Under the pieces are notes generated by a model. The model searched no databases. It had not been told where the DNA came from and saw only the letters and a list, made by a program, of their open reading frames with translations. Source: a virus (taxonomy: Duplodnaviria > Caudoviricetes). Taken from it: a stretch of DNA of 64,000 nt. Each line of letters starts with the position of its first letter. The stretch's first letter is position 1. The stretch lies in the IMG/VR virus record IMGVR_UViG_3300032038_000064, positions 6,906 to 70,905 of that record; one strand, written 5' to 3'. Position numbers and translations under genes: made by a program. Of the stretch, positions 1 through 64,000 are shown piece by piece.

Positions 1-132
1 GCGTTTGCAAAAAAGGCAGACCCGAAGCCACAATTTGTACAGTCTACTGAACCGAAAAAGCCGGATAAACTTACTTTGTCTCAACTTATGAAGATGAAAA
101 ATGATAATCCGGACGCAGTAATTAACATTTAA
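1..132 (+). CDS. capsid scaffolding protein, C-terminal fragment (5' truncated by window)
   Basis: Frame 1 is open to TAA at 130-132 (AFAKKADPKPQFVQ...LTLSQLMKMKNDNPDAVINI); lies directly upstream of the major capsid gene. Confidence 0.55.
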   Translation, partial: AFAKKADPKPQFVQSTEPKKPDKLTLSQLMKMKNDNPDAVINI

Positions 133-146
133 TTGGAGGTATTAAA

Positions 147-1355
147 ATGCCGCAGTTTGATAGCAAACTTTTTAATGGCGAAGTGTTTCAGAAATACGTT
201 GATAGAGTTCCGAATCTGAAACTCAATGAACTGCTTAAATCTAGGGCAGTTGTTGCAAGACCCGACCTTGCTAGTGCAATGGCAGACCAGGTTGGTGGCA
301 ACTATATTACAACTCCCTTAAAGGGACTTATTAGTGGAACTATTCCGCTTAACTATGATGGTGTAACAAATATTACATCTCAGACCACGCAGACCTTCTC
401 TCATAGCAGAGTTGTTGTTGGTCGTGCGCAGGCATGGACTGAGAAGGACTTCTCCTATGACATCACTGGTGGTGTAGACTTCATGGAGAATGTTGCACAG
501 CAAGTTGCTGAGTATTGGGATGAAATTGACCAAGCAACCCTCGTATCTATTCTGACTGGTGTGTTTAGCATGACAGATGCAGAAGGGGCACGTTTTGTTT
601 CCGAACATACTCATGATATTCACACAGTCGCAAACAGTGAAGGCAAAACTGGATTTATGGACGCTACTTCTCTGAACACTGCTATTCAGAAAGCAAGTGG
701 TGACCACAAAAACAGATTCTCTCTTGCTATCATGCACTCCGCAGTTGCTACTAATCTTGAGAATATGAAAGTTCTTGTATATCTCAAATACAACGATGCG
801 AATGGCATGGAGCGTGAGACTGGTCTTGCTACTCTGAATGGTAGACTTGTTATCGTTGATGATAGTATGCCGATTCTTGAAGATACCGGCACTGCTACTT
901 TTTCCAAGACTTCTGATACCGCTGTTACTGCTGGTAAGACTTATTATACTCGCACAGGCACTTCTGGTAACTACACATACACGGTTGTTGTTAATCCTGT
1001 CGATGCTTCTATTAATAACTACTATGAAAAGACGGGCACAGGCAATCCGATGTATGTAACGTATCTGTTCGGTGACGGTGCGATTGAGTATACGAACTGC
1101 GGTGCCAAAGTTCCTGCAGAAATGAGTCGTGACCCGAGGACTAACGGTGGTCAAGATACTCTGTATAACAGACAGAGAAAGTGCTTTGCTCCTTACGGCA
1201 TCTCTTTCACAAAGGCACATATGGCTACACTGTCTCCTACTGATGCTGAACTTGCTGATGGTGCTAACTGGGAACTCGTTAATACCGGTGGTTCTAACAA
1301 GAAATATATCAATCTGAAGGCTATTCCGATTGCGAGAATTATCTCCCTCGGCTAA
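147..1355 (+). CDS. major capsid protein
   Basis: 402 aa; GGAGG RBS; N-terminus MPQFDSKLFNGEVF and C-terminal GGQDTLYNR...PYGISF...NWELV...KAIPIARIIS as in clostridial siphophage capsids; first gene of the head-neck-tail order. Confidence 0.85.
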   Translation: MPQFDSKLFNGEVFQKYVDRVPNLKLNELLKSRAVVARPDLASAMADQVGGNYITTPLKGLISGTIPLNYDGVTNITSQTTQTFSHSRVVVGRAQAWTEKDFSYDITGGVDFMENVAQQVAEYWDEIDQATLVSILTGVFSMTDAEGARFVSEHTHDIHTVANSEGKTGFMDATSLNTAIQKASGDHKNRFSLAIMHSAVATNLENMKVLVYLKYNDANGMERETGLATLNGRLVIVDDSMPILEDTGTATFSKTSDTAVTAGKTYYTRTGTSGNYTYTVVVNPVDASINNYYEKTGTGNPMYVTYLFGDGAIEYTNCGAKVPAEMSRDPRTNGGQDTLYNRQRKCFAPYGISFTKAHMATLSPTDAELADGANWELVNTGGSNKKYINLKAIPIARIISLG

Positions 1356-4788: not shown

Positions 4789-7700
4789 ATGGCAAATGTT
4801 GATGGAGATATTACTTTACGAGTAGACGTAAAGCCTGGTGACGTACTTAGTGCGGCAAACGATATTAAACAAGAATTTAAAGAAATTTTTGACCAAACTT
4901 CTGGACAACAGTTATCTGCCCCGTTCAATAACGCAAAAATAAGCGCCGTAAAATTATATAATGAGATGGAAAAAATTACGTCTAAGATGGCAGAGTTGGA
5001 CGAAGCGATGACCAAAGAAGGCGTTGATCCACTTGACAAAGCAAAATATTCGGCAAAATATGATGCGTTAGTAACAAACTTAAATGACGTAACTAATAGG
5101 GCAACTGTTACACGAGATAAGTTGAATGAGTTAGCATCTGCCGTTAGTAGCGCATCAGATACAGCACTTCCTACAGTTTCTAGGTTTGACATACTTAAAC
5201 AGTCGTTTATAGAAATAGCAAAAAATGCGGGAAAAGTTGTTACTGCTTTTTTAAAAATTAGTAGTAGAAATATATTGGCCGGCATATCACGATTAACAAG
5301 TGGTATGAAAAATCTTCATAAACATACCGGCAGACAAAATAACGCATTACAAGTAGGTTTTAAAAATTTCATTCGATACGGACTCGGGGTTCGTTCTGTA
5401 TTTGCATTAATTAATAAACTAAGAAGAGCATTAGGTGAAGGCATCGGGAATCTTGCCCAATACTCTCCCGAATTTAACGGTGTAATATCTGATTTTATCA
5501 GTGCGCTCGAAACATTAAAAAATGCTTTTGCCACTGCGTTTGCTCCCATTCTCTCAGTAGCATTACCACTACTCACTGCATTAATGAATGCGCTGGTAGA
5601 TGCGGTATCATTAGTAGGACGTTTCTTTGCGGCATTAACCGGCCGTAATACATTTGTACAGGCAAAACACGTAAATAAAGATTATGCGGCATCTTTACAG
5701 AAAACTGGAAAAAGTGCTGACGGTGCGGCAAGCGGTATTGACAATGCAAAAGAATCGGCGGAAGATTTACAACGTACAATAGCGGGATTTGACGATGTTG
5801 AAATTTTGCATGAAAATAAACCGACTAGTTCATCAGGCAGCGGCGGTAGCGGGTCAGGTAGCGGTGCTGGAACAAAACTGTCTCCTGCAGATATGTTTGA
5901 AACTGTAGGAATAGAATCGCCTATTGCTGATTTAGCGAAGCGTTTACGAGAACTAATAGAAAATCAAGATTGGGTAGGGCTCGGGCAGTATCTCGGTGAA
6001 AAGATTAATTCTGTTTTTCAAAAAGCGAAAGAACTCATATCCTGGGATAATTTAGGAGATAGAATAACAAAAATCATAACCGCAATAACAACGACATTTA
6101 ATAGTCTTGTTGATACGATAGATTGGGAGTTAATAGGTAGTACCTTTGCAGAAGGTATTAATACAATAATAAAAACGCTTGATTTATTAATAACAGGAAT
6201 AGATTGGGCACTACTCGGCAGAAGTATTGCAGAGGGCTGGAATGGTTTATTTAGCAATATCGACTGGCTTGGCGCAGGTAAATTAATTGGCGATGGTATA
6301 GTTGCAGTATTTGATTTTTTATATGATGCTATAACAACTTTTAAATGGGAAGATTTAGGTAAGAATCTAGCAACAGCATTATATAAAGTATTTACCACAG
6401 TTAATTGGGACAAAGTAGGAAAGACATTTTCAAACGGAGTAAACGCGGTTCTTAATTTACTATACGGGTTTATAACGACATTTAATTGGGCAAGTGCAAC
6501 CGCTCGTTTAATGGCGGCAGTAAATTCATTTCTTCAAAATGTTGATTGGAAACGTCTAGGTGCAACTTTAGGCGAACTTATAAAGGCGTTACTGCAAACA
6601 TTTAAAACAATCATTGCAGAATTTGATTGGCGCGCACTCGGAGAATCTATTATTAAGTTCCTATCAGGCGTTGATTGGGCAGGTTTAATTTCTGAATTAT
6701 TATCTACTATTGTTCAAATTGGATTAAGTCTATTAGAATTTAATCTTGGTATGAGCAGTGCCCTTGTAACCGGTTTAATAGATATTTTAGGCGGACTTGC
6801 AGAAAAAGTTCGTGAATATTTTGAACAATATGGCGGAGACATTATTCAAGGCTTAATCGACGGCATTGTTGCCGCTATTAAGGGTATTGGAAAATGGATA
6901 GAGGACAACGTTGTTAATCCGATTATAGACGCCTTCAAAGAAGCATTCGGCATCGCATCGCCTTCAAAGGTAATGAAGCAGTTAGGCGGATATGTAACGC
7001 AAGGATTATTATTAGGCATAAGCGGTGCTTGGACAACTATCACTACGTTCTTTAAAAACGCAATTACTACAATCAGTAATTTCTTTAAGAATTTCAATTG
7101 GCGAGATTTAGGAAGTAGTATAATTCAAAAACTGCATAACGGTATTTCAAATGTATGGGGAACGGTAACATCATTCTTTACTAACGGTGTAAATACAATC
7201 AGGAATTTAATAAATTCTTCTAATTGGAGCGGTTCAGGAAATACGATTGTAACTAAATTAAAGAGCGGTATTTCCGCTATGTGGAACTCGTCAATAGTAT
7301 CATATATACGAACCGGTATTTCTGGAATTGTCAGTACGATAACAAATGCGAACTGGACTTCTTCGGGAGCAACAATAGTATCGAAATTACGCTCAGGACT
7401 TGCCGGCACATGGTCATACATTTCCTCATTTGCACAGAGCGGCGTATATCAGTTAATGTCAATGTTTCAATCATCTAGTTGGCACAGTGTCGGTTCAAAT
7501 ATTTGTGCCGGCTTAGCAAATGGTATTTATTCGGGATGGAGTTGGGTAACGACCGCGGCCCGTAATCTAGCCCGTTCTGCGTATAACTCTGCAAGAAACG
7601 CACTGAGGATACATTCACCTTCTGTTGTATTTCGAGATGCAATTGGTAAGATGATTCCAGCAGGTATGGCAGAAGGTATCGAAGATGGTAGTAATCTTGC

Positions 7701-23616: not shown

Positions 23617-25911
23617 ATGGCATTATTTAATGTTCCGAAAAGAGCAGGAAAATCTCAAGATAAAGCAGTAGCAGGAAAGTCAAAAACAAGAACAAAAGCG
23701 CCGACAACAATGAAGAGTGGGTTGCTCGGACAAATTTCTCAAATTATTGCTACAGTAGAAAAGTATCTTGGGAAATATAAAAATGATTATGAAATCATTA
23801 CAACTAAGGAACGGCTAAAAGAATACATAGATATATGTATAGCCAATGATATTATCAGTATAGATACTGAAACAACAGGTCTTGACCCAATTCTTGATAA
23901 GATTGTAGGACTTTGCTTGTATACTCCTAATGAGAAGCCAGCATATGTTCCTATTAATCACACATCTTATGTAACTGGAGTAAGAGTAGACAATCAATTA
24001 ACAGAACAAGAGGTAGCAAGTGTATTGCAAGATATAGCAACTATGGATACATATGTTGTTATGTTTAATGCAAAATTTGATATTCGGGTAATCAGAAATC
24101 AGTTAGGTGTATATCTTGATTGCGATTGGGATTGTTATTTAGCAGGCAGACTTCTTAATGAAAATGAAGAATCTAAAGGATTGAAAGCACTTCATCAGAA
24201 ATATGTTCTTGACGGAAAAGAAGATGAATTTAGATTCGATGCATTATTTAAAGGAATAACTGCGGATAAAATTCCGATTAACACATTCTATCTGTATGCG
24301 GCACATGATGCGATTATCACGTATGAGTTATACGAATATCAAAAGCAGTTCTTGTATTATGAAGAAGATAAGTCCAATGATGCCCGTAACGGACTGAATG
24401 GTGTTTCGTGGGTATTCTTTAATATTGAGATGCCGTGTGTGAAAATAGTTTGCGATATGGAAGATAACGGAGTAAAGTTCGATTTTGCATATCAACAGAA
24501 GTTATCGGAAAAGTATAATGCACTACTTGAGGAAAAGACAGAACAGTTTTATAAACTGTGCGATATGTATTCAGAGGAGATTCTTAATTATCGTAAGAAG
24601 AACGTAAACTGTAAACTCGATGACCCGATAAATATCGGTAGTCCTACGCAGATTGCGATTCTTCTTTATGATATTTTACAGATTGAGCCTCCTGACCCTA
24701 AAAGTCCTAGAGGAACTGGTGAAGGTATTCTGCAAAAGATTGATAATCCTATTGCAAAAGCAATTCTCGAATTTAGGGAAATGTCAAAACTTGTATCTAC
24801 GTATATTGATAAACTACCGAACTGTGTAAACCCAAAAGACGGAAGAATACACTGTAGTTTCAATCAGTACGGCGCAGATACAGGAAGATTTAGTTCGTCA
24901 GACCCGAATTTGCAGAACATTCCTTCACATAATAAAGATATTCGTAAGATGTTTGTAGCGTCTGAGGGATATGTGCTTATGTCAAGTGACTACTCACAGC
25001 AAGAACCAAAGGTTATGACGCAGATGTGCGGTGACCCAAAGATGATTAAAGCGTATCAAGAAGGAAAAGATTTATATGCAGAAATTGCGGCACTGTCCTT
25101 TAACACTACTTATGAGAACTGCCTTGAATTTAGACCAGATGGAACAACTAATCCAGAGGGCAAAAACAGAAGAAGTCAGGCAAAAAGCATTTTGCTCGGA
25201 GTGCTTTATGGCAGAGGAGTGCCTTCAATCGCTGAACAATTGGGAACTTCTACTAAGAAAGCACAAACAATAAAAGATTCTGTATTCAAAGGATTTCCAG
25301 CAATACCTAAATTTGAACAAGATTCATTAGATATGGCGTATGAAAAAGGATATGTTACAACTTTGTGGGGCAGAAAAAGAAGATTGCCTGATTTACAACT
25401 TCCGGAGTATGAGTTCAAATGGGTTGATGGTGCGCCAAAGGATGATGATTTACTCGACTTTGATTTAGAAGAAGAGATGAATGAACCCGAGATTCCTGAG
25501 GAAGTGCAGAAGAAATATATACGCAGATTAAAGCAAGCCTATTTTGGAAAGAAACGTAAGATATTTGAAGAAGCAAATAAAGAAGGAATATGGATTGTCG
25601 ATAACGGCGGTAAGATAGCAGATGCACAAAGACAGTGTGTAAATGCTAGAATCCAAGGAAGTGCCGCAGATATGTCAAAACTTGCGATGATTTTAGTCGG
25701 AAATGATGAACGATTAAAAGAATTAGGATTCAGACTTCTTATACCCGTACATGATGAATTAATAGCAGAGTGTCCTGAGGAAAATGTAAAAGAGTGTTCT
25801 GAGAGATTTGCAATGCTTATGGGTAAAGCGGCAGAGAGCGGATTAAGTATTCCTATTCGGTGCGATGTTGAGATAACTAGAGAGTGGTACGGAGATAGTA
25901 TTGAGATATGA
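23617..25911 (+). CDS. polA: DNA polymerase family A with 3'-5' exonuclease domain
   Basis: Exo I DTETTG, FNAKFD, YAAHDA; GRFSSSDPNLQNIP; motif A DYSQQE; motif B RSQAKSILLGVLYG; motif C VHDE. Confidence 0.95.
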   Translation: MALFNVPKRAGKSQDKAVAGKSKTRTKAPTTMKSGLLGQISQIIATVEKYLGKYKNDYEIITTKERLKEYIDICIANDIISIDTETTGLDPILDKIVGLCLYTPNEKPAYVPINHTSYVTGVRVDNQLTEQEVASVLQDIATMDTYVVMFNAKFDIRVIRNQLGVYLDCDWDCYLAGRLLNENEESKGLKALHQKYVLDGKEDEFRFDALFKGITADKIPINTFYLYAAHDAIITYELYEYQKQFLYYEEDKSNDARNGLNGVSWVFFNIEMPCVKIVCDMEDNGVKFDFAYQQKLSEKYNALLEEKTEQFYKLCDMYSEEILNYRKKNVNCKLDDPINIGSPTQIAILLYDILQIEPPDPKSPRGTGEGILQKIDNPIAKAILEFREMSKLVSTYIDKLPNCVNPKDGRIHCSFNQYGADTGRFSSSDPNLQNIPSHNKDIRKMFVASEGYVLMSSDYSQQEPKVMTQMCGDPKMIKAYQEGKDLYAEIAALSFNTTYENCLEFRPDGTTNPEGKNRRSQAKSILLGVLYGRGVPSIAEQLGTSTKKAQTIKDSVFKGFPAIPKFEQDSLDMAYEKGYVTTLWGRKRRLPDLQLPEYEFKWVDGAPKDDDLLDFDLEEEMNEPEIPEEVQKKYIRRLKQAYFGKKRKIFEEANKEGIWIVDNGGKIADAQRQCVNARIQGSAADMSKLAMILVGNDERLKELGFRLLIPVHDELIAECPEENVKECSERFAMLMGKAAESGLSIPIRCDVEITREWYGDSIEI

Positions 25912-26360
25912 GAATTTGGGTCGGTATTGATGTTGAGCATACACCGTTATATGGAAAACAAATACTGTTTGTAGAATCAGTAAATCCTGACATAGATAAG
26001 GTTATAGAAATTTTATCTAATCATCAGGTTAATATATTTGGGATTTATTTCGGAGCCGGAGAAGTAGATATTGAAAATTGGGAATTTTTAAGTTCTTTAT
26101 ATAAAATTTCTGATTATACCATAGCAGTAGAGACTTCTAAGTGTTTGAATGAAGAAATGATAACTAATGCCGATTTAGATTTAATTATTTATCGAGTTCC
26201 TATTGAAGCGGTGTCTGATAAGGTATATATTAAATATCGAGCACCGAAAGAAGTTGGAGTTTCTTCATTGCACGGTTTTAAAACTACATCGTTGTACACG
26301 TTAAACGACGGAAAATACGCAGGTGATATAGAACTTTATAATGATGAGGAGAGTGTATGA
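25908..26360 (+). CDS. conserved hypothetical protein of the modification cluster
   Basis: ATGA overlap with polA; GIDVEHTPLYGKQILFV and IYFGAG motifs; coupled to the glycosyltransferase. Confidence 0.6.
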   Translation: MRIWVGIDVEHTPLYGKQILFVESVNPDIDKVIEILSNHQVNIFGIYFGAGEVDIENWEFLSSLYKISDYTIAVETSKCLNEEMITNADLDLIIYRVPIEAVSDKVYIKYRAPKEVGVSSLHGFKTTSLYTLNDGKYAGDIELYNDEESV

Positions 26361-27364
26361 CTATTTTTTATCTTCCTATAGAACCGTATGAAACACGCTA
26401 TACCGCAGATTGGGTAAGGCAGTTTGAGAAAGAATTTGAAAAACACGGCGTTAATTATAAAACGATAATGGGTTCTACAAATTCAACAAAAGTTACGGCA
26501 GGCGGCGTACTCGATGCGTGCGGAACACATTCTTTTAAGTTTACGCAATTGTGTACGCTTATTGATTATATTAATACTGGAAAAGTTAATAACGGCGACA
26601 TTGTATTTTTTGCAGATTTATGGTTTCCCGGGATTGAGAGTTTGTTTTATATTCGGAATATGTTGAATATTGATTTTAAAATTTGTGGGATTTTTCACGC
26701 CGGAACGTATGACAAATATGATTTTACATATAGAAATGGGATGAGGCCGTGGGGAAAGTTTCTTGAAGCAAGTTGGTTTAGCGGCGTTGATATGATTTTT
26801 GTAGCCACAGAGTTTCATAAAAAACTGCTTCTTAGTAATTCCGCATATGTATTGGGCTTAGCGGATAAGATTAAAGTTACGGGATTGCCGTTTTATGCAA
26901 ATGAATTACGACAGAAATATCCGTGTGAAAAGTCCGATGACAATATTTTAGTATTTCCCCATAGATGTGATGCAGAAAAATGCCCCGAATTGTTTGATGC
27001 GTTAGTTACGTGGCTTACAGGGCGTGATGTTAAGTTTGTTGCATGTAAGACAATTCTTGAAACGAATAGTAGGGACGAATATTTTAAATTATTAGCACAG
27101 TCAAAGGTAATGGTATCATTTGCACAGCAAGAGACCTTCGGTTATTCAACACTTGAGAGTATGGCTTTAGGTAATATAGTTGTTGTTCCTAATAAGTTAA
27201 GTTATGTTGAGACAGTTCCTAATGCGTTTCGTTATAATTCAATGGAGGAATGTTTTGATGCGGTATATAATGCGCTTACTGATTATGTTCCGCCGAGTTA
27301 TGTAAATATAGAAAAGTGGGAAAATTCCATACATAATATGCTTATTGAAATGGAGAAGATATGA
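26357..27364 (+). CDS. GT-B (GT4-like) glycosyltransferase, QTMAN/GTDC1-like
   Basis: VFPHRCDAEKCPE and ETFGYSTLESMALG (E-x7-E donor-binding motif), followed by VPNKLSYVETVP; N-terminal IEPYETRYTADW and FHAGTYD. Confidence 0.8.
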   Translation: MTIFYLPIEPYETRYTADWVRQFEKEFEKHGVNYKTIMGSTNSTKVTAGGVLDACGTHSFKFTQLCTLIDYINTGKVNNGDIVFFADLWFPGIESLFYIRNMLNIDFKICGIFHAGTYDKYDFTYRNGMRPWGKFLEASWFSGVDMIFVATEFHKKLLLSNSAYVLGLADKIKVTGLPFYANELRQKYPCEKSDDNILVFPHRCDAEKCPELFDALVTWLTGRDVKFVACKTILETNSRDEYFKLLAQSKVMVSFAQQETFGYSTLESMALGNIVVVPNKLSYVETVPNAFRYNSMEECFDAVYNALTDYVPPSYVNIEKWENSIHNMLIEMEKI

Positions 27365-28257
27365 ATTTATATTTTGCAGGTTGGGGTTCCCAAGACGCGG
27401 ACGAGTATTTACGTAGTAAACAAGCGCATCGGTTATTATCTTGGGTTAATGAGCGTAGAGTGTTAGAGTGGTGGGAGAATGATAATCTTGCAGATAGGTT
27501 GTTTATTGATAGCGGCGCATTTTCAGTTGCACATTCCGGAGTTAATATTAAAATTGATGATTATATTCAGTTTATTAGGGACCATCCGAAGATTTTAAAT
27601 TGGGCAGAATTAGATGTAATTCCGTACCCAGTATTAAATAATGCAACTGCTAAAATGTGTAGCGAAAAAAGTTGGGAAAATTATGTTTATATGCAATCAA
27701 AATTAGCCGGAATAAATATATTACCGCTGTATCATTTTGGAGAGAGTAAATTAGGATTAAAGAGAATATTAGAATCAGAGGTGTGCGGAAAACATGCTGA
27801 TTATATAGGTATAGGTGGACGGCACGGAGTAAGTACCGATTTGCAGGCACGTTATTTTAATGAGATATTTTCAATTATCAAACATAGTAGTAATCCTAAT
27901 GTTAAAGTTCACGCATTCGGAATAACTGTTCCTAAATTATTAGAACAATTTCCGTTTTATAGTGCTGATTCGACAACGTGGCTTCAAGTTGCAATTTCCG
28001 GAGGAATATTAACTGAGGATTTGCAAGCAATTAGAATAAGCGACGGAACAACATATGATAAGACTAATATTCAGTCAATGCCAAAAGATGCACTAGATAT
28101 ATTATTGCCCACGATTGAGAAGTATAACTATGATTTTACTGAATTGTGTGCTGATTATAAAGTGCGATTGCGCTATAATATTGATGTGATGCTGAATTGG
28201 GAAAAACAGTATACATATAAAGGGCCTAAGATATTTAAATCCCAAAAATTGTTTTAG
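27361..28257 (+). CDS. TGT-fold guanine transglycosylase (DpdA-like)
   Basis: LFIDSGAFS (catalytic Asp motif), LDVI, PLYH.GE, YIGIGG, KVHAFG, PFYSADSTTW; no canonical Zn-binding CxCxxC tail of tRNA TGTs. Confidence 0.75.
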   Translation: MNLYFAGWGSQDADEYLRSKQAHRLLSWVNERRVLEWWENDNLADRLFIDSGAFSVAHSGVNIKIDDYIQFIRDHPKILNWAELDVIPYPVLNNATAKMCSEKSWENYVYMQSKLAGINILPLYHFGESKLGLKRILESEVCGKHADYIGIGGRHGVSTDLQARYFNEIFSIIKHSSNPNVKVHAFGITVPKLLEQFPFYSADSTTWLQVAISGGILTEDLQAIRISDGTTYDKTNIQSMPKDALDILLPTIEKYNYDFTELCADYKVRLRYNIDVMLNWEKQYTYKGPKIFKSQKLF

Positions 28258-28348
28258 AAAGGAGGCATTGTTGTTTAGCCCTACCAACGTTATCAAATGA
28301 GGGTAGTTGTTTATCCTTACCAACTTATTAAACGAAGGAGATTTAGTA

Positions 28349-29023
28349 GTGAAGAAAACGAATGAAAATTTGAACCTGTTGTACATGATTTTTGCAGTCG
28401 GATTAGTTACTGCGAATGCTATTTCTGCAAAGATATTTGATACTGGATTTTTATTGTTCGGAAATCCAGTTACTTTAACTGTAGGCGCAATTTGCTATCC
28501 GATAACATTTTTAGTGACAGATATTATCGGAGAAATTTGGGGAAAGCATGAAGCGCAAGTTGCGGTAAAATTTGGATTTATTTGCCAACTTATAGCCACG
28601 TTCGTTATTATAATTGCAAGATATTTACCACCAGTTGATAGTTCAATGCAGGACAGTTATGTTAATTTGATGGGGCAGAATTGGGTGTTTGTGCTTGCAA
28701 GTTTATCTGCATTTTTAATTTCTCAGTCGTGGGACGTTTTTGTTTTTCATAAAATTCGTAATGCTTATATTAAAAAGCACGGTAGTAGAAAGGGCGGTCG
28801 TTGGATTTGGAACAATGGTTCAACGATAGGTAGTCAATTAATTGATAGCATTATTTATGTATTTGTTGCGTTCGGTTTCGGATTTGGCTGGTTGTTTAAT
28901 TCAGATATGTGGGGAATGATGTTTTCTATGATTGCCGGTCAGTTTATTGTAAAGGCAATTTTAGCGTTGCTTGATACGCCTATATTTTATGTTTTAACAA
29001 ATAATAAGGAGGGCACTAAATGA
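28349..29023 (+). CDS. yhhQ: queuosine-precursor transporter (YhhQ/Vut_1 family)
   Basis: Multi-TM; ANAISAKI, GAICYPITFLVTDIIGEIWG, ASLSAFLISQSWDV, RWIWNNGSTIGSQLIDSIIY, KAILALLDTP. Confidence 0.9.
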   Translation: MKKTNENLNLLYMIFAVGLVTANAISAKIFDTGFLLFGNPVTLTVGAICYPITFLVTDIIGEIWGKHEAQVAVKFGFICQLIATFVIIIARYLPPVDSSMQDSYVNLMGQNWVFVLASLSAFLISQSWDVFVFHKIRNAYIKKHGSRKGGRWIWNNGSTIGSQLIDSIIYVFVAFGFGFGWLFNSDMWGMMFSMIAGQFIVKAILALLDTPIFYVLTNNKEGTK

Positions 29024-29208
29024 ACACAAGAACACCGACAAGAGTACATACAAGAAAACTTGATAGGTCAGTTGCTAAAGCATCTATGAAGAGAGCCGGC
29101 ATGGTACAAATTAATAAAACTATGAGATTTGAGAACGTTACTCCACAAGGATGTAAGTATACGGAGGTAACTAGAAGTTATTTTGCTGAAAATTGGAGAA
29201 ACTATTAA
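29020..29208 (+). CDS. hypothetical protein
   Basis: 62 aa basic ORF, GGAGG RBS. Confidence 0.5.
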   Translation: MNTRTPTRVHTRKLDRSVAKASMKRAGMVQINKTMRFENVTPQGCKYTEVTRSYFAENWRNY

Positions 29209-29228: not shown

Positions 29229-30317
29229 ATGAAACTGACAATGAATACTGCGAAGTTGCAAGATATGGTAGCGAGAGCAGTAAAAGGAGCATCGAATAAT
29301 AAGTTGATTCCGATTACTTCTCTTATGGCGATTGAGTTAAAGCCCAATCACATTCTCACGCTGACAACAACCGATGCTACAAATTATCTGTATATTGATG
29401 AGCATAAAGTCGATGGAGATGAGTTTTATGCAGTAGTTCCTGTGGATGTATTCAGTAAACTTATTGCAAGAATGACTTGTGAGAATGTTATGCTGACAGT
29501 TCGCCCCGATGTTAAGATTCTCGAAGTTAAGGGAAATGGTAATTATAAGATTGAACTTCCGCTCGATGAGAATGGACAACTTATCAAATATCCTGACCCG
29601 TATAAAGAGGGCAAAAATTCTGACATTAAACTTAATCTGTCTACAGTTAAGGTGATTCTTGATACGTTGAAATCTGCACTTGCAACAACGTTAGAAAATC
29701 CGTGCTATACAGGATATTATGCGGGCGATAGTGTGATTGCTACAGATACTTATAAGATTGCAAACATGGACGTTTCGTTGTTCAATGAGCCCGTTCTTGT
29801 AAGTGCGGAACTTATGAATCTGCTTTCTGTAATTACTGAGGAGAATATTTATGTGAATATTGATGGAGATGTATTGCAGTTCTCTACAGACACTTGCAGA
29901 ATCTATGGCAGAGCAATGGAAGGCATTGAAGATTTTGCAGTTGAGCCGATTATGTCTCTAGTAGATACTGAGATGGATAGTCAGTGTTCTCTGAACAAAA
30001 CAGAACTCTTACAGGTACTTGATAGACTTTCTCTGTTCGTTGGTCCTTACGATAAGAATGCAGTAAGATTCACATTTACAAGAGAAGGACTTGAAATTTC
30101 GTCCAAAGCATCTAGCAGTGTTGAGATTATTCCGTATATCAGCAGTAAAGAGTTCAAGGCATTTACGTGCATGATTGATGTGCAGATGATTACACAGGAA
30201 GTAAAAGCAGTACAGGCAGACGTGATTGAAATGTATTACGGCGAAGATAATGCAGTAATTATGAAAGACGGTAACATTACAATCGTAGTCGCTCTGTTAG
30301 AAGATGAAGAGGAGTAA
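29229..30317 (+). CDS. dnaN: DNA polymerase III beta sliding clamp
   Basis: 362 aa three-domain size; LTLTTTDATNYL, VIATDTYKIA, ELLQVLDRLSLF repeats match the beta-clamp domain pattern. Confidence 0.85.
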   Translation: MKLTMNTAKLQDMVARAVKGASNNKLIPITSLMAIELKPNHILTLTTTDATNYLYIDEHKVDGDEFYAVVPVDVFSKLIARMTCENVMLTVRPDVKILEVKGNGNYKIELPLDENGQLIKYPDPYKEGKNSDIKLNLSTVKVILDTLKSALATTLENPCYTGYYAGDSVIATDTYKIANMDVSLFNEPVLVSAELMNLLSVITEENIYVNIDGDVLQFSTDTCRIYGRAMEGIEDFAVEPIMSLVDTEMDSQCSLNKTELLQVLDRLSLFVGPYDKNAVRFTFTREGLEISSKASSSVEIIPYISSKEFKAFTCMIDVQMITQEVKAVQADVIEMYYGEDNAVIMKDGNITIVVALLEDEEE

Positions 30318-62852: not shown

Positions 62853-64000
62853 ATGAGTAAAATTACTATATTTATTCCACCGCTTCCTAGAAAAGATTAT
62901 TCATACAGATTAGGCGATGCGCAGATTATTCACGATGATAATAAAAACGCAATTGTAATTGACGGCGGTGAAGATAGTTTGTGCAATGAGATTATTAAAT
63001 ACTGTAAGTCTCATGGAATTACGCACATCACTTATATTCTCTCTCACTGGCACTATGACCATGACAGAGGTATGAAACTGCTTCTTGATTCTTCTATTAT
63101 TGTGGATAAAATCTATTGTCCGCCTCCGGCAGATTTAACGAAACTGAGAGATTCAGATGCAAAGGATGATTATAGCCGAGCAATGACTAGAATTGCACAG
63201 GCTAATAAATTGAAGAAATCTATTATTTATCCTCCAGCAGACCAGTATACTACTATCAAAGTGGGAACTATTGTTTGTAAAATTTGGAGAAGAAGTGTTC
63301 GTCCGTCTGAAAATGTGGATTACCAAGTAAATAATACTTCTTTATGTTGCTATTTCCCGGATTTATATTACGCAACTACCGGTGATTCTATTAATGCGTT
63401 TGACGCCTTTCTTCAAACAAAGCCGGGAAAAATAACAGTATTTAAAATTCCGCATCACGGCAATGCGTGTACAACTAATCCTTGCACACTACTTAAAGAA
63501 GCGGGCGCTCAGATTTGCTGGTATAATCACTCTGAAAAATACGGAGTTGATGTTGGCGGTGATAGTTTTAGTAAATGGGGTGCGGGCTACTGTAAGAAGC
63601 ATTTTATTTGCATCAGACCGTTTTATACTATTACTATGACTGCTTGTGATAAGAAGTTATATATCGAACAAAACGGCAGTAAGTGGTCATATGATATTCC
63701 GTATGATGGCAAGCCCAGCGCCAGCGGATGGCTTAAGGGCACAAAGGGTATGTGGTATCAGTACCCCGACGGAACATGGCCCACTGGTTGGGCATTCCTC
63801 AAGACGCAGGACGGCAAAGGCGAGGCGTGGCACTTCTTTGATAATGACGGCTGGTTACAGTACGGATGGATTAAAGATAATGGTTACTGGTACTTCCTCG
63901 ACGAAAAAGACGGGCATATGCTGACGGGCTGGCTCAATCGGTACGGCCTGTTCTATCTCGAACCCGTCAGCGGCAAGAATCAAGGGCACGCTTACATGTC
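62853..64000 (+). CDS. metallo-beta-lactamase-fold (ComEC/Pce-like) hydrolase with cell-wall-binding repeats, 3' truncated (not in ORF track)
   Basis: TAAGGAG RBS; GDAQII, VIDGG, SHWHYDH (HxHxDH), NNTSL, TTGDS, KIPHHG; then GW...WY/WHFF..DG.L..GW choline-binding-type repeats; frame open to the window end. Confidence 0.8.
   Translation, partial: MSKITIFIPPLPRKDYSYRLGDAQIIHDDNKNAIVIDGGEDSLCNEIIKYCKSHGITHITYILSHWHYDHDRGMKLLLDSSIIVDKIYCPPPADLTKLRDSDAKDDYSRAMTRIAQANKLKKSIIYPPADQYTTIKVGTIVCKIWRRSVRPSENVDYQVNNTSLCCYFPDLYYATTGDSINAFDAFLQTKPGKITVFKIPHHGNACTTNPCTLLKEAGAQICWYNHSEKYGVDVGGDSFSKWGAGYCKKHFICIRPFYTITMTACDKKLYIEQNGSKWSYDIPYDGKPSASGWLKGTKGMWYQYPDGTWPTGWAFLKTQDGKGEAWHFFDNDGWLQYGWIKDNGYWYFLDEKDGHMLTGWLNRYGLFYLEPVSGKNQGHAYM

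Follow-up and report, generated by a model that had tools for sequence, protein, structure and literature searches.

A phage gene module that likely yields a sugar-bearing 7-deazaguanine DNA base, undescribed in the literature found

The window analysed here (64,000 nt, positions 6,906 to 70,905 of the IMG/VR record IMGVR_UViG_3300032038_000064) is part of the complete 70,905-bp genome of an uncultured phage (CheckV 100%). It harbors a compact group of genes between a DNA polymerase and a sliding clamp (Table 1). The 4-nt overlaps of the ATGA type that the initial annotation had reported for polA, ORF150, GT and dpdA are real (at 25908, 26357, and 27361); in the first of them, the polA stop codon overlaps the start of ORF150. 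A further ATGA overlap at 29020 joins yhhQ to a small basic ORF, for which family searches gave no match. In relatives, the polymerase usually adjoins the module as well, and the clamp gene lies at the same downstream position in Streptococcus phage Dp-1, Bacillus phage Flasso, and two further loci (L009 and L021). Synteny of DpdA, DnaN, and a Cas4-like nuclease bears out the resemblance to the Dp-1 replication module noted earlier. When the region was compared with phage records by megablast, no match was returned. Of the claim that the cluster is coupled to the polymerase, adjacency and overlap stood, but coupling as such is a reading of gene order only. We propose that ORF150, GT, DpdA, and YhhQ constitute one DNA-hypermodification module that would be expressed together with the replication genes.

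Table 1. Genes of the putative modification module and its neighbors (positions refer to the window)
Feature	Position	Strand	Basis or remark
PolA, family A DNA polymerase with 3'-5' exonuclease	23617..25911	+	Pfam DNA_pol_A 1.5e-94, DNA_pol_A_exo1 8e-15
ORF150, 150 aa	25908..26360	+	QueE-derived candidate without Fe-S cluster
GT, 335 aa, GT-B / GT4-type glycosyltransferase	26357..27364	+	model, motifs, and profile comparison
DpdA-family DNA-guanine transglycosylase (predicted), 298 aa	27361..28257	+	phrog_887 'queuine tRNA-ribosyltransferase' 1.2e-45
YhhQ / Vut_1 (COG1738) queuosine-precursor transporter, 238 aa	28307..29023	+	Vut_1, TIGR00697
Basic ORF, 62 aa, overlaps the YhhQ stop (ATGA)	29020..29208	+	no family match
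Sliding clamp (DnaN-like), downstream boundary of the module	29229..30317	+	phrog_947 3.4e-31; DNA_pol3_beta matches weak

The transglycosylase shares 37% identity with the DpdA of Flasso and 35% with that of Dp-1 over the full length; the DNA of the latter phage carries dPreQ1 (PMC6884629). The protein groups with phage and bacterial DpdAs, away from tRNA TGTs. Pfam TGT does not match it and phmmer against the PDB gave no match; the only PDB match of the DpdA (A4) profile at E<=0.01 is the weak one to the DNA-guanine transglycosylase 7ui4 (E 0.009). D50 and G52 of a DSG-type motif (DSGA) as well as D85, H125, H184, and D203 are invariant among 20 homologues, and the classical DSGGFQ of PA5oct gp168 aligns with this motif. 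Pairwise BLAST against PA5oct gp168 and ACP17 gp123 was not significant, and these two proteins belong to a DpdA subfamily separate from that of the window protein. Judged by sequence, the window protein is a DNA-type DpdA, predicted to exchange guanine in DNA.

The transporter gene follows dpdA closely, as annotated (Vut_1 7.6e-43, 146.9 bits, cut-off 27.2; TIGR00697 8.6e-35, 120.4 bits, cut-off 50.95). Its start codon is uncertain (TTG was chosen by the ORF finder), and orthologues occupy the same position in five other loci (L014, L015, L018, L095, L096). The absence of que genes initially noted for the window extends to the whole 70,905-bp record: the rest of the genome was searched as well, and the profile search gave no match to QueC, PTPS/QueD, GTP cyclohydrolase I (folE), radical SAM (queE), or QueF. 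A salvage reading fits, since YhhQ is present and the complete genome holds no que gene. In the GT tree, the window GT lies within a clade (support 99%) whose seven loci all lack DpdL and which is nested among relatives with de novo base synthesis. The salvage form is derived, YhhQ having taken the place of the synthesis genes in this small clade.

The GT-B fold assigned to GT, with its two Rossmann-like domains, is confirmed by a structural model (pLDDT 93.6) with VIA Z values of about 25 to GT4 enzymes (25.4 to 6kih, 25.3 to BshA; 293-308 residues aligned); the best matches include sucrose-phosphate synthase (SPS), BshA, MshA, and tetrahydrobiopterin glucosyltransferase. GT looks catalytically intact, and a pseudo-enzyme is unlikely, as the EX7E motif (E259, E267), FPHR (200-203) including R203, and K208 are invariant among 41 homologues; R203 and K208 represent the basic residues that GT4 enzymes have for the diphosphate of the nucleotide-sugar. 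All 41 family members match Glycos_transf_1 (best E 2.4e-11), the window GT itself with 24.7 bits (E 2e-5) under the gathering cut-off of 26.4; PHROG glycosyltransferase profiles match it as well. Profile comparison by hhalign with six bacterial PF12038 proteins yielded E 2e-15 (probability 98.5%, 258 columns, 7-290) across both domains, and a BshA control E 8e-7. A custom QTMAN-like HMM matches the window GT at 1.2e-11 and 108 of 111 family ORFs, the BshA HMM 4 of 111. Pfam QTMAN_N (PF12038) matches none of 41 family members at E<=1 (HMMER), and since this profile does not recognise the N-domain, GT is not filed as a QTMAN member. QTMAN_N-type enzymes nevertheless appear to be its closest detectable relatives in sequence, the relation being a distant one.

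QTMAN mannosylates queuosine in tRNA (bioRxiv 10.64898/2026.06.28.735034). This alpha-mannosyltransferase takes mannose from GDP-mannose and places it on queuosine-34 of tRNA-Asp; the acceptor that it is known to use is a 7-deazaguanine base in a nucleic acid. QTMAN/GTDC1 (PF12038 plus Glycos_transf_1) and the window GT are both of the GT4 type. GT shares the signature HR[WL]xx[DE]KxPExF, with aligned motif Lys residues, with bacterial QTMAN_N proteins; K296 of human QTMAN is reported as catalytic, the motif Lys of GT having been compared with the bacterial proteins only. The phage enzyme is shorter than QTMAN (335 aa versus about 370-460), and its partner is a DNA transglycosylase, whereas that of QTMAN is a tRNA pathway.

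The GT family comprises at least 696 clusters (50% identity) at E<=1e-30, almost all from phages. The best 150 matches of a representative-library search all fall inside the family, and an ESM Atlas search with GT returned viral GT clusters only. Among 185,579 prokaryote species genomes, 17 matches were found, nearly all on MAG contigs and several on the same phage contigs as in the viral set; one Paenibacillus polymyxa chromosome harbors a lone copy (50% identical) without que genes. Members occur in the cultured phages ACP17, PA5oct, BUDD, BCSR5, BUCT-ZZ01, and Phosso. Distant homologues in Xanthomonas jumbo phages sit amid sugar-metabolism genes. GT loci were gathered by an alignment-based scan of viral contigs (a single-sequence scan with GT found none), and 99 of 109 carry DpdA, which lies within 300 bp of GT in 68. 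Ten loci are left: some are cut by a contig end or sit on very short contigs, and the others are Phosso (no DpdA within 7 kb of GT), one bacterial orphan, and a distant 26% homologue. The pairing spans two DpdA subfamilies and the unrelated phages ACP17, PA5oct, BUDD, BCSR5, and BUCT-ZZ01. This co-occurrence and the grouping of the transglycosylase apart from tRNA TGTs were the two computational points that the initial annotation had named as able to refute its reading, and both came out in its favor.

Most GT loci also hold FolE, QueD, QueE, and DpdL, a gene set known from dDG phages, and a QueC-like match was obtained in one distant locus only. GT mostly accompanies such QueC-less DpdL clusters (predicted product 7-deazaguanine), not preQ0/preQ1 pathways. 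In related clusters, SPASM/twitch or B12 radical SAM genes adjoin GT; enzymes of these classes often tailor sugars. No GT was among the matches listed for Cellulophaga phage phiST, which makes dDG, so the insertion step as such can do without GT.

ORF150 matches no Pfam, PHROG, or NCBIfam family. For its model (pLDDT 94.3), QueE structures rank as the top three of 48,161 PDB chains, with Z values of only 6.7, 5.9, and 5.8; Foldseek against the PDB gave nothing significant. An hhalign comparison with phage QueE reached E 4.2e-4 (probability 34%), with the CxxxCxxC loop deleted. This Fe-S motif is missing from ORF150, which has a single Cys in the whole protein. The QueE-like features compared at these Z and E values were the core of a partial barrel and the motifs GGE, ETN, and that of the N-terminus. 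Derivation from a second radical SAM family was unsupported (hhalign E 0.02, probability 2%). Homologues are encoded in 21 GT loci, mostly as the gene immediately preceding GT. Pairwise BLAST gave no significant match to the small ORFs of BUDD, BCSR5, and ACP17; an iterated ORF150 HMM links BCSR5 (2e-19) and, marginally, ACP17 gp122. ORF150 hence looks QueE-derived but devoid of the Fe-S cysteines, and is proposed to bind a deazaguanine or pterin-like ligand, or to serve as an accessory of GT.

From the gene content, folds, homologies, and conserved linkage observed, we infer DNA as the target, the order of the steps, the imported base, the sugar donor, and the acceptor atom as follows. As the phage has no synthesis genes, YhhQ would bring in a finished 7-deazaguanine base, made by the host or present in the environment; candidates are preQ0, preQ1, queuine, CDG, and DG. 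DpdA would then swap guanines in the phage DNA for this base, and the QTMAN-related GT would subsequently use a nucleotide-sugar to glycosylate the deazaguanine so inserted, a reaction in DNA parallel to that of QTMAN on queuosine already in tRNA. ORF150, the putative QueE remnant that lacks an iron-sulfur cluster, probably assists and would do so by binding either GT or the deazaguanine moiety. This route would give a 7-deazaguanine deoxynucleoside with a sugar attached, shielding the DNA from restriction and other nucleases. Insertion of an imported base by DpdA followed by its glycosylation is the reading that we hold, with a chance somewhat above even.

The sugar might instead be attached before insertion, e.g. 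at the 2-amino group of the free base, as is done by HuiG with GlcNAc and a derivative of preQ0 (bioRxiv 10.64898/2026.04.15.718813); DpdA would then insert a base that already bears its sugar, or the glycoside would serve for storage or transport. Several traits would suit this order: enzymes with small-molecule acceptors (BshA, MshA, tetrahydrobiopterin glucosyltransferase) are among the structural matches of GT; GT is an acidic protein; its conserved N-domain is rich in aromatic and acidic residues; and the likely ancestor of ORF150, QueE, binds a free pterin or deazapurine. The net acidity of both GT and ORF150, uncommon among enzymes that bind DNA, also speaks against the reading that we hold. 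However, the pockets of TGT-type enzymes enclose the base that enters, where room would be needed for a bulky sugar, and the nearest detectable sequence relatives of GT act on a base already in nucleic acid, which leaves glycosylation of the free base rather unlikely in our judgment. That the base is loaded at position 34 of host tRNA and then glycosylated, reprogramming translation during infection, would agree with the QTMAN-type kinship of GT and with the normal service of YhhQ in tRNA queuosine salvage. It is very improbable, given that the transglycosylase groups with phage DpdAs, one of which belongs to a phage with measured DNA modification (Dp-1; PMC6884629), that its only significant PDB match (E<=0.01) is a DNA-guanine transglycosylase, with Pfam TGT not matching, that the module lies inside the replication operon, that DpdL-type relatives make no queuosine-like side chain, and that PA5oct DNA contains a modified G (PMC12191111). 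The initial annotation had additionally taken the lack of GUN anticodons as an argument for DNA; only tRNA-Leu(taa) and tRNA-Gln(ttg) were indeed found, but the argument is weak, since host tRNAs could still be targets.

GT could finally be unrelated to deazaguanine and merely share its location, with a protein, a polymer of the host surface, or some other DNA base as its acceptor, or it could accompany DpdA as a non-catalytic structural partner. Acceptors of GT4 enzymes are very diverse, and both the Paenibacillus orphan and the genomic setting of the Xanthomonas phage homologues would be in line with such a role. This is quite improbable in view of the linkage to DpdA (adjacent in 68, present in 99 of the 109 loci), which is hard to explain by chance, the invariant catalytic EX7E, Arg, and Lys, and the near absence of the family from prokaryote genomes. 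A pyrimidine acceptor also lacks its enzyme: PF00303, the thymidylate-synthase-type hydroxymethylase, has no match in the complete genome, and service of GT in a 5-hydroxymethyl-pyrimidine pathway was therefore ruled out.

Extending glycosylation after insertion to the family as a whole, we suppose tentatively, at slightly less than an even chance, that phage-specific QTMAN-related GTs and DpdA together put sugars on 7-deazaguanine in DNA. A cyclopentenediol acceptor, present in the case of QTMAN, is not predicted in most family members, and an O-glycoside like that of QTMAN is not obviously possible there, because 7-deazaguanine, the predicted DpdL product, has no hydroxyl; the sugar would have to go onto N2, a carbon of the ring, or a side chain that other enzymes supply. 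If the supposition is true, a whole class of undescribed glycosylated purine-analogue DNA bases would exist, and animal tRNA QTMAN and the phage DNA GTs would descend from one enzyme that was already specialised for nucleic-acid deazaguanine. With queuine as the imported base, the product in the window's clade would be glycosyl-deoxyqueuosine. The QTMAN link would also offer a first functional lead for many bacterial QTMAN_N proteins. A modification of this kind would matter for defences based on restriction, CRISPR, or glycosylases and for base-calling when phage DNA is read by nanopore, and the occurrence of the module in cultured phages makes the question directly testable.

As in the DpdA systems of Dp-1, 9g, CAjan, and phiST (PMC6884629; PMC10516641), DpdA is located here inside a replication module, and an optional YhhQ or QueT transporter as well as DpdA-only 'salvage' phages are already known (PMC6884629; PMC10516641). 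Unlike in the described systems, DpdA is here translationally coupled, as far as the overlaps indicate, to a GT and to an ORF that looks QueE-derived. None of the eight described phage 7-deazaguanine derivatives bears a sugar, the main text of both papers never mentions a glycosyltransferase (PMC6884629; PMC10516641), and no description of a glycosylated deazaguanine DNA chemistry was found in the literature. A sugar on the deazaguanine could explain why the ACP17 pathway was not reconstituted from dpdL and dpdA alone (PMC10516641), and likewise the modified G, chemically unidentified, that restriction analysis indicated for the therapeutic jumbo phage PA5oct (PMC12191111), which carries the GT-DpdA pair. 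HuiG of huimycin synthesis, set beside GT here by its description, is a glycosyltransferase acting on a 7-deazapurine from the same pathway (bioRxiv 10.64898/2026.04.15.718813), but it belongs to secondary metabolism, uses the free base, and is encoded in clusters without DpdA. The T4-type alpha- and beta-glucosyltransferases, which are GT-B enzymes of phages too and act on a modified base (5-hydroxymethylcytosine) once it is in DNA, provide a precedent for the mechanism; they show no detectable sequence relation to the window GT, whose phage, unlike those of the T4 type, has no hydroxymethylase and whose proposed acceptor is a purine analogue. To our knowledge, all DNA bases described to date as glycosylated are hydroxymethyl-pyrimidines (T-even phages, base J), and a sugar on deazaguanine would, if true, represent a new chemical class of DNA base.

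The window corresponds to bases 6906-70905 of the 70,905-bp IMG/VR record, for which CheckV gives a completeness of 100%. The genes of the module match the initial annotation, and all three ATGA-type overlaps described there for PolA, ORF150, GT, and DpdA were confirmed in the sequence; a fourth one joins the YhhQ stop to a small basic ORF. Family searches bore out the absence of que genes from the window and extended it to the complete genome: QueC, QueD/PTPS, FolE, radical SAM, and QueF were not found in the entire 70,905 bp, nor was a thymidylate-synthase-type hydroxymethylase. The only tRNAs detected are Leu(taa) and Gln(ttg). The ends of the record interrupt a lysin-like gene, and a sequence of at least 40 nt occurs both at position 73 and at position 70806 of the genome; probably, the record either is circularly permuted or was opened within this gene.

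Features of the module, its surroundings, and compared loci (window coordinates unless a locus or the genome is named)
Feature	Location	Strand	Annotation
Family A polymerase (PolA)	23617-25911	+	DNA_pol_A 1.5e-94
ORF150, 150 aa	25908-26360	+	without family match
GT, 335 aa	26357-27364	+	weak Glycos_transf_1; PHROG glycosyltransferase
DpdA-like, 298 aa	27361-28257	+	phrog_887 'queuine tRNA-ribosyltransferase' 1.2e-45
YhhQ/Vut_1	28307-29023	+	Vut_1 7.6e-43; TIGR00697 8.6e-35
62-aa ORF, basic	29020-29208		no family match
Lysin-like gene	62853-64000; genome bases 1-950		cell-wall-binding repeats
PA5oct gp168, 540 aa	L003:4379-6001		'hypothetical protein'
Paenibacillus polymyxa ISL-58 GT copy (chromosome)	L010:6001-7023 (= L104)		
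Extra radical SAM genes, examples from related viral loci	L011:1561-2856; L040:7126-8004; L019:6757-7524; L072:2659-3660		

Judged by its sequence relatives, the window transglycosylase is a DNA-type enzyme, and the earlier assignment of the TGT-fold protein to DpdA rather than to tRNA TGT stands. Among annotated proteins it is closest to DpdA of Bacillus phage Flasso (37%) and of Streptococcus phages Dp-1 and MS1 (35%); DpdAs from phages of Vibrio, Pseudomonas, Escherichia, and Mycobacterium are more distant. Dp-1 is known to have dPreQ1 in its DNA (PMC6884629). Searched against the PDB, a profile of 20 DpdA homologues yielded a single significant match (E<=0.01), a weak one to the DNA-guanine transglycosylase 7ui4 (E 0.009), and none to a tRNA TGT. 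The aspartate of the DSG motif and a second aspartate are invariant in the homologues.

Six cultured phages that are not related to one another have homologues of the GT (tblastn, 27-34% identity) inside their 7-deazaguanine clusters, namely Acidovorax ACP17, Pseudomonas jumbo phage PA5oct, Sinorhizobium Phosso, Xanthomonas BUDD, Synechococcus BUCT-ZZ01, and Burkholderia BCSR5. In PA5oct, gp168, the gene product encoded immediately upstream of the homologue, carries the classical TGT motif DSGGFQ and groups with DpdA3-like proteins of ACP17, BUDD, and BCSR5. The phage GT family comprises 233 clusters (90% identity, one search) or 696 representatives (E<=1e-30, 50% library) and occurs on 256 viral contigs. 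Only 17 matches were obtained in 185,579 prokaryotic species genomes, nearly all on MAG contigs and several on phage contigs already in the viral set; the family is nearly phage-only. When 109 GT loci were surveyed with HMMs purpose-built for this analysis, DpdA was present in 99 and lay within 300 bp of the GT in 68. The expected pairing of the GT with DpdA and YhhQ across relatives is thus borne out for its DpdA half, and non-co-occurrence is clearly contradicted; YhhQ was found in six loci. Base synthesis genes are frequent (DpdL in 91, FolE in 81, QueE in 79, and QueD in 58 of the 109), and one putative QueC-like match, from a drifted HMM, falls in L008, the locus of a distant GT homologue (26%). 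DpdL is a QueD paralogue with the motif LxxxHRHxF and a proposed CDG decarboxylase yielding 7-deazaguanine (PMC10516641). DpdA is missing from ten loci: some lie at contig ends or on very short contigs, and the others are Phosso (none within 7 kb), the P. polymyxa copy, and the distant 26% homologue, which is surrounded by sugar genes. The P. polymyxa GT, 50% identical to that of the window, adjoins an AraC regulator and stands alone, without que or dpdA genes; since it is nested within the phage clade of the GT tree, it may be a phage remnant. On the viral contig L076, three tandem GT-family matches precede DpdA and QueD, and the GT branch is very long.

The AlphaFold model of the GT (pLDDT 93.6) shows a GT-B/GT4 fold, with sucrose-phosphate synthase (Z 25.4), BshA (25.3), and MshA (24.8) as structural matches. 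Among 41 homologues the EX7E motif (E259, E267), FPHR (200-203), and K208 are invariant, and large parts of the N-terminal acceptor domain do not vary either; this conservation speaks for a functional enzyme that acts on a single conserved acceptor. A profile of six aligned bacterial QTMAN_N proteins matched the phage GT family in hhalign over both domains (probability 98.5%, E 2e-15, 258 columns), while BshA, the best structural match and sole control family, reached E 8e-7 over 181 columns. As HMMER models, the QTMAN-like profile (E<=1e-3) recovered 108 of 111 phage GT ORFs (window GT 1.2e-11) and BshA four of the 111. Membership in QTMAN_N by the Pfam criterion was rejected, the Pfam model matching none of the 41 family members. 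QTMAN_N-domain proteins are common in bacteria (loci L112-L119; genomes G010, G047, G333, and others), with 77 of 301 sampled genomes positive in the phylum of a Bacteroidetes MAG (G001), often in two copies, and 43 of 301 in that of an Acidobacteriota MAG (G002), a tally including one unpublished genome, G157, which contributed no sequence to the analysis. Mannosyl-queuosine is not known from bacteria. The signature HR[WL]xx[DE]KxPExF is common to phage GTs and bacterial QTMAN_N proteins, and the motif lysines align. In human QTMAN, K296 is reported to be catalytic (bioRxiv 10.64898/2026.06.28.735034); from the comparison with the bacterial QTMAN_N proteins, we infer that the phage lysine is its equivalent.

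ORF150 is modeled confidently (pLDDT 94.3), and its best three matches among 48,161 PDB representatives are all QueE, at middling Z scores (6.7, 5.9, 5.8), with further radical SAM cores ranking next. Alignment with phage QueE (hhalign E 4.2e-4, probability 34%) places W-G-x-E-x-E...G..TLFV on the QueE N-terminal motif, YFGAGE on the GGE motif, and E-x-S on ETN; the deletion coincides precisely with the CxxxCxxC loop, and ORF150 has one cysteine. Sequence and model thus suggest, with moderate confidence, a QueE-derived protein incapable of radical chemistry, which may bind a deazapurine or pterin-like ligand. Homologues occur in 21 GT loci (iterated HMM), in almost every case as the gene immediately before the GT. 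Elsewhere this slot is filled by a SPASM/twitch or B12-binding radical SAM protein, and one of these partners is present in 75 of 105 loci. In many GT-DpdA clusters the extra radical SAM gene, adjacent to the GT, comes on top of a canonical QueE; the B12-binding type (431 aa) was seen in 37 loci and the SPASM/twitch type (216-333 aa, intact CxxxCxxC) in about 25, and the window phage has neither. Both classes often tailor sugars, and BlsE, AprD4, and ArsS are among the weak matches. The extra genes possibly encode sugar- or base-tailoring steps, which would be compatible with, rather than proof of, a sugar adduct.

Close relatives keep the polymerase-to-clamp frame and vary in supply genes. 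L009 and L021 show the order PolA-DpdL-ORF150-like-GT-DpdA-QueD-QueE-FolE-DnaN, L018 shows PolA-DpdA-DpdL-GT-YhhQ-DnaN, and the window shares PolA-ORF150-GT-DpdA-YhhQ-DnaN with L014, L015, L095, and L096. In a quick maximum-likelihood phylogeny of 101 GTs (midpoint root for drawing only; duplicates L097, L104, and L106, distant L008, and fragments <280 aa omitted), the window falls into a clade with six other loci, all seven without DpdL (SH-aLRT 99). As this clade is nested (99) amid de novo relatives, the salvage form looks like a derived state, in which synthesis genes and DpdL would have been lost and a transporter gained, with GT and ORF150 retained.

Gene content, folds, homologies, and linkage are direct observations. 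On these we base a reading that we consider the most likely, somewhat better than even: YhhQ would import a 7-deazaguanine base, DpdA would put it in place of guanine in phage DNA, and the GT would transfer a sugar from a nucleotide-sugar to the base already in DNA, with ORF150 assisting. The interpretation passed all computational tests able to sink it, and its chemical core is a prediction; what we infer is the identity of the base and of the sugar donor, the atom that accepts the sugar, the sequence of the steps, and DNA as the target. Glycosylation of the free base, followed by insertion, would reverse the last two steps and is unlikely. A GT unrelated to the modification, or non-catalytic, is more improbable still, given the linkage to DpdA and the invariant motifs. 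Host tRNA as the target, to which the QTMAN kinship could point, is the least probable, the transglycosylase itself grouping with phage DpdAs.

The main difficulty for glycosylation in DNA is that the predicted product of most relatives is 7-deazaguanine, a base lacking a hydroxyl group; therefore, the acceptor may be N2, a carbon atom of the ring, or a side chain built by the extra radical SAM enzymes. Huimycin provides a precedent for N2 glycosylation (bioRxiv 10.64898/2026.04.15.718813). For the window clade, without these enzymes, one may speculate that imported queuine would supply a QTMAN-type acceptor.

Eight deazaguanine DNA derivatives are described, none of them sugar-bearing, and the main texts of both reports nowhere mention a glycosyltransferase (PMC6884629, PMC10516641). 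A full-text search, with most subscription journals outside its scope, retrieved no publication in which a glycosyltransferase is connected with deazaguanine modification of phage DNA. PA5oct has modified G by restriction analysis, its chemistry not being given (PMC12191111). The GT-DpdA module is widespread and directly testable in cultured phages. DpdA-only and YhhQ-carrying phages form an already known category (PMC6884629); here, a glycosyltransferase is coupled to DpdA in addition. The proposed likeness to the Dp-1 replication module holds in the order DpdA, DnaN, Cas4-like nuclease, common to Dp-1 and the window, but the Dp-1 module lacks a GT, unlike the window. In acting on a base already inserted, the GT would resemble QTMAN, which acts on tRNA, and the T4 glucosyltransferases, which act on DNA.
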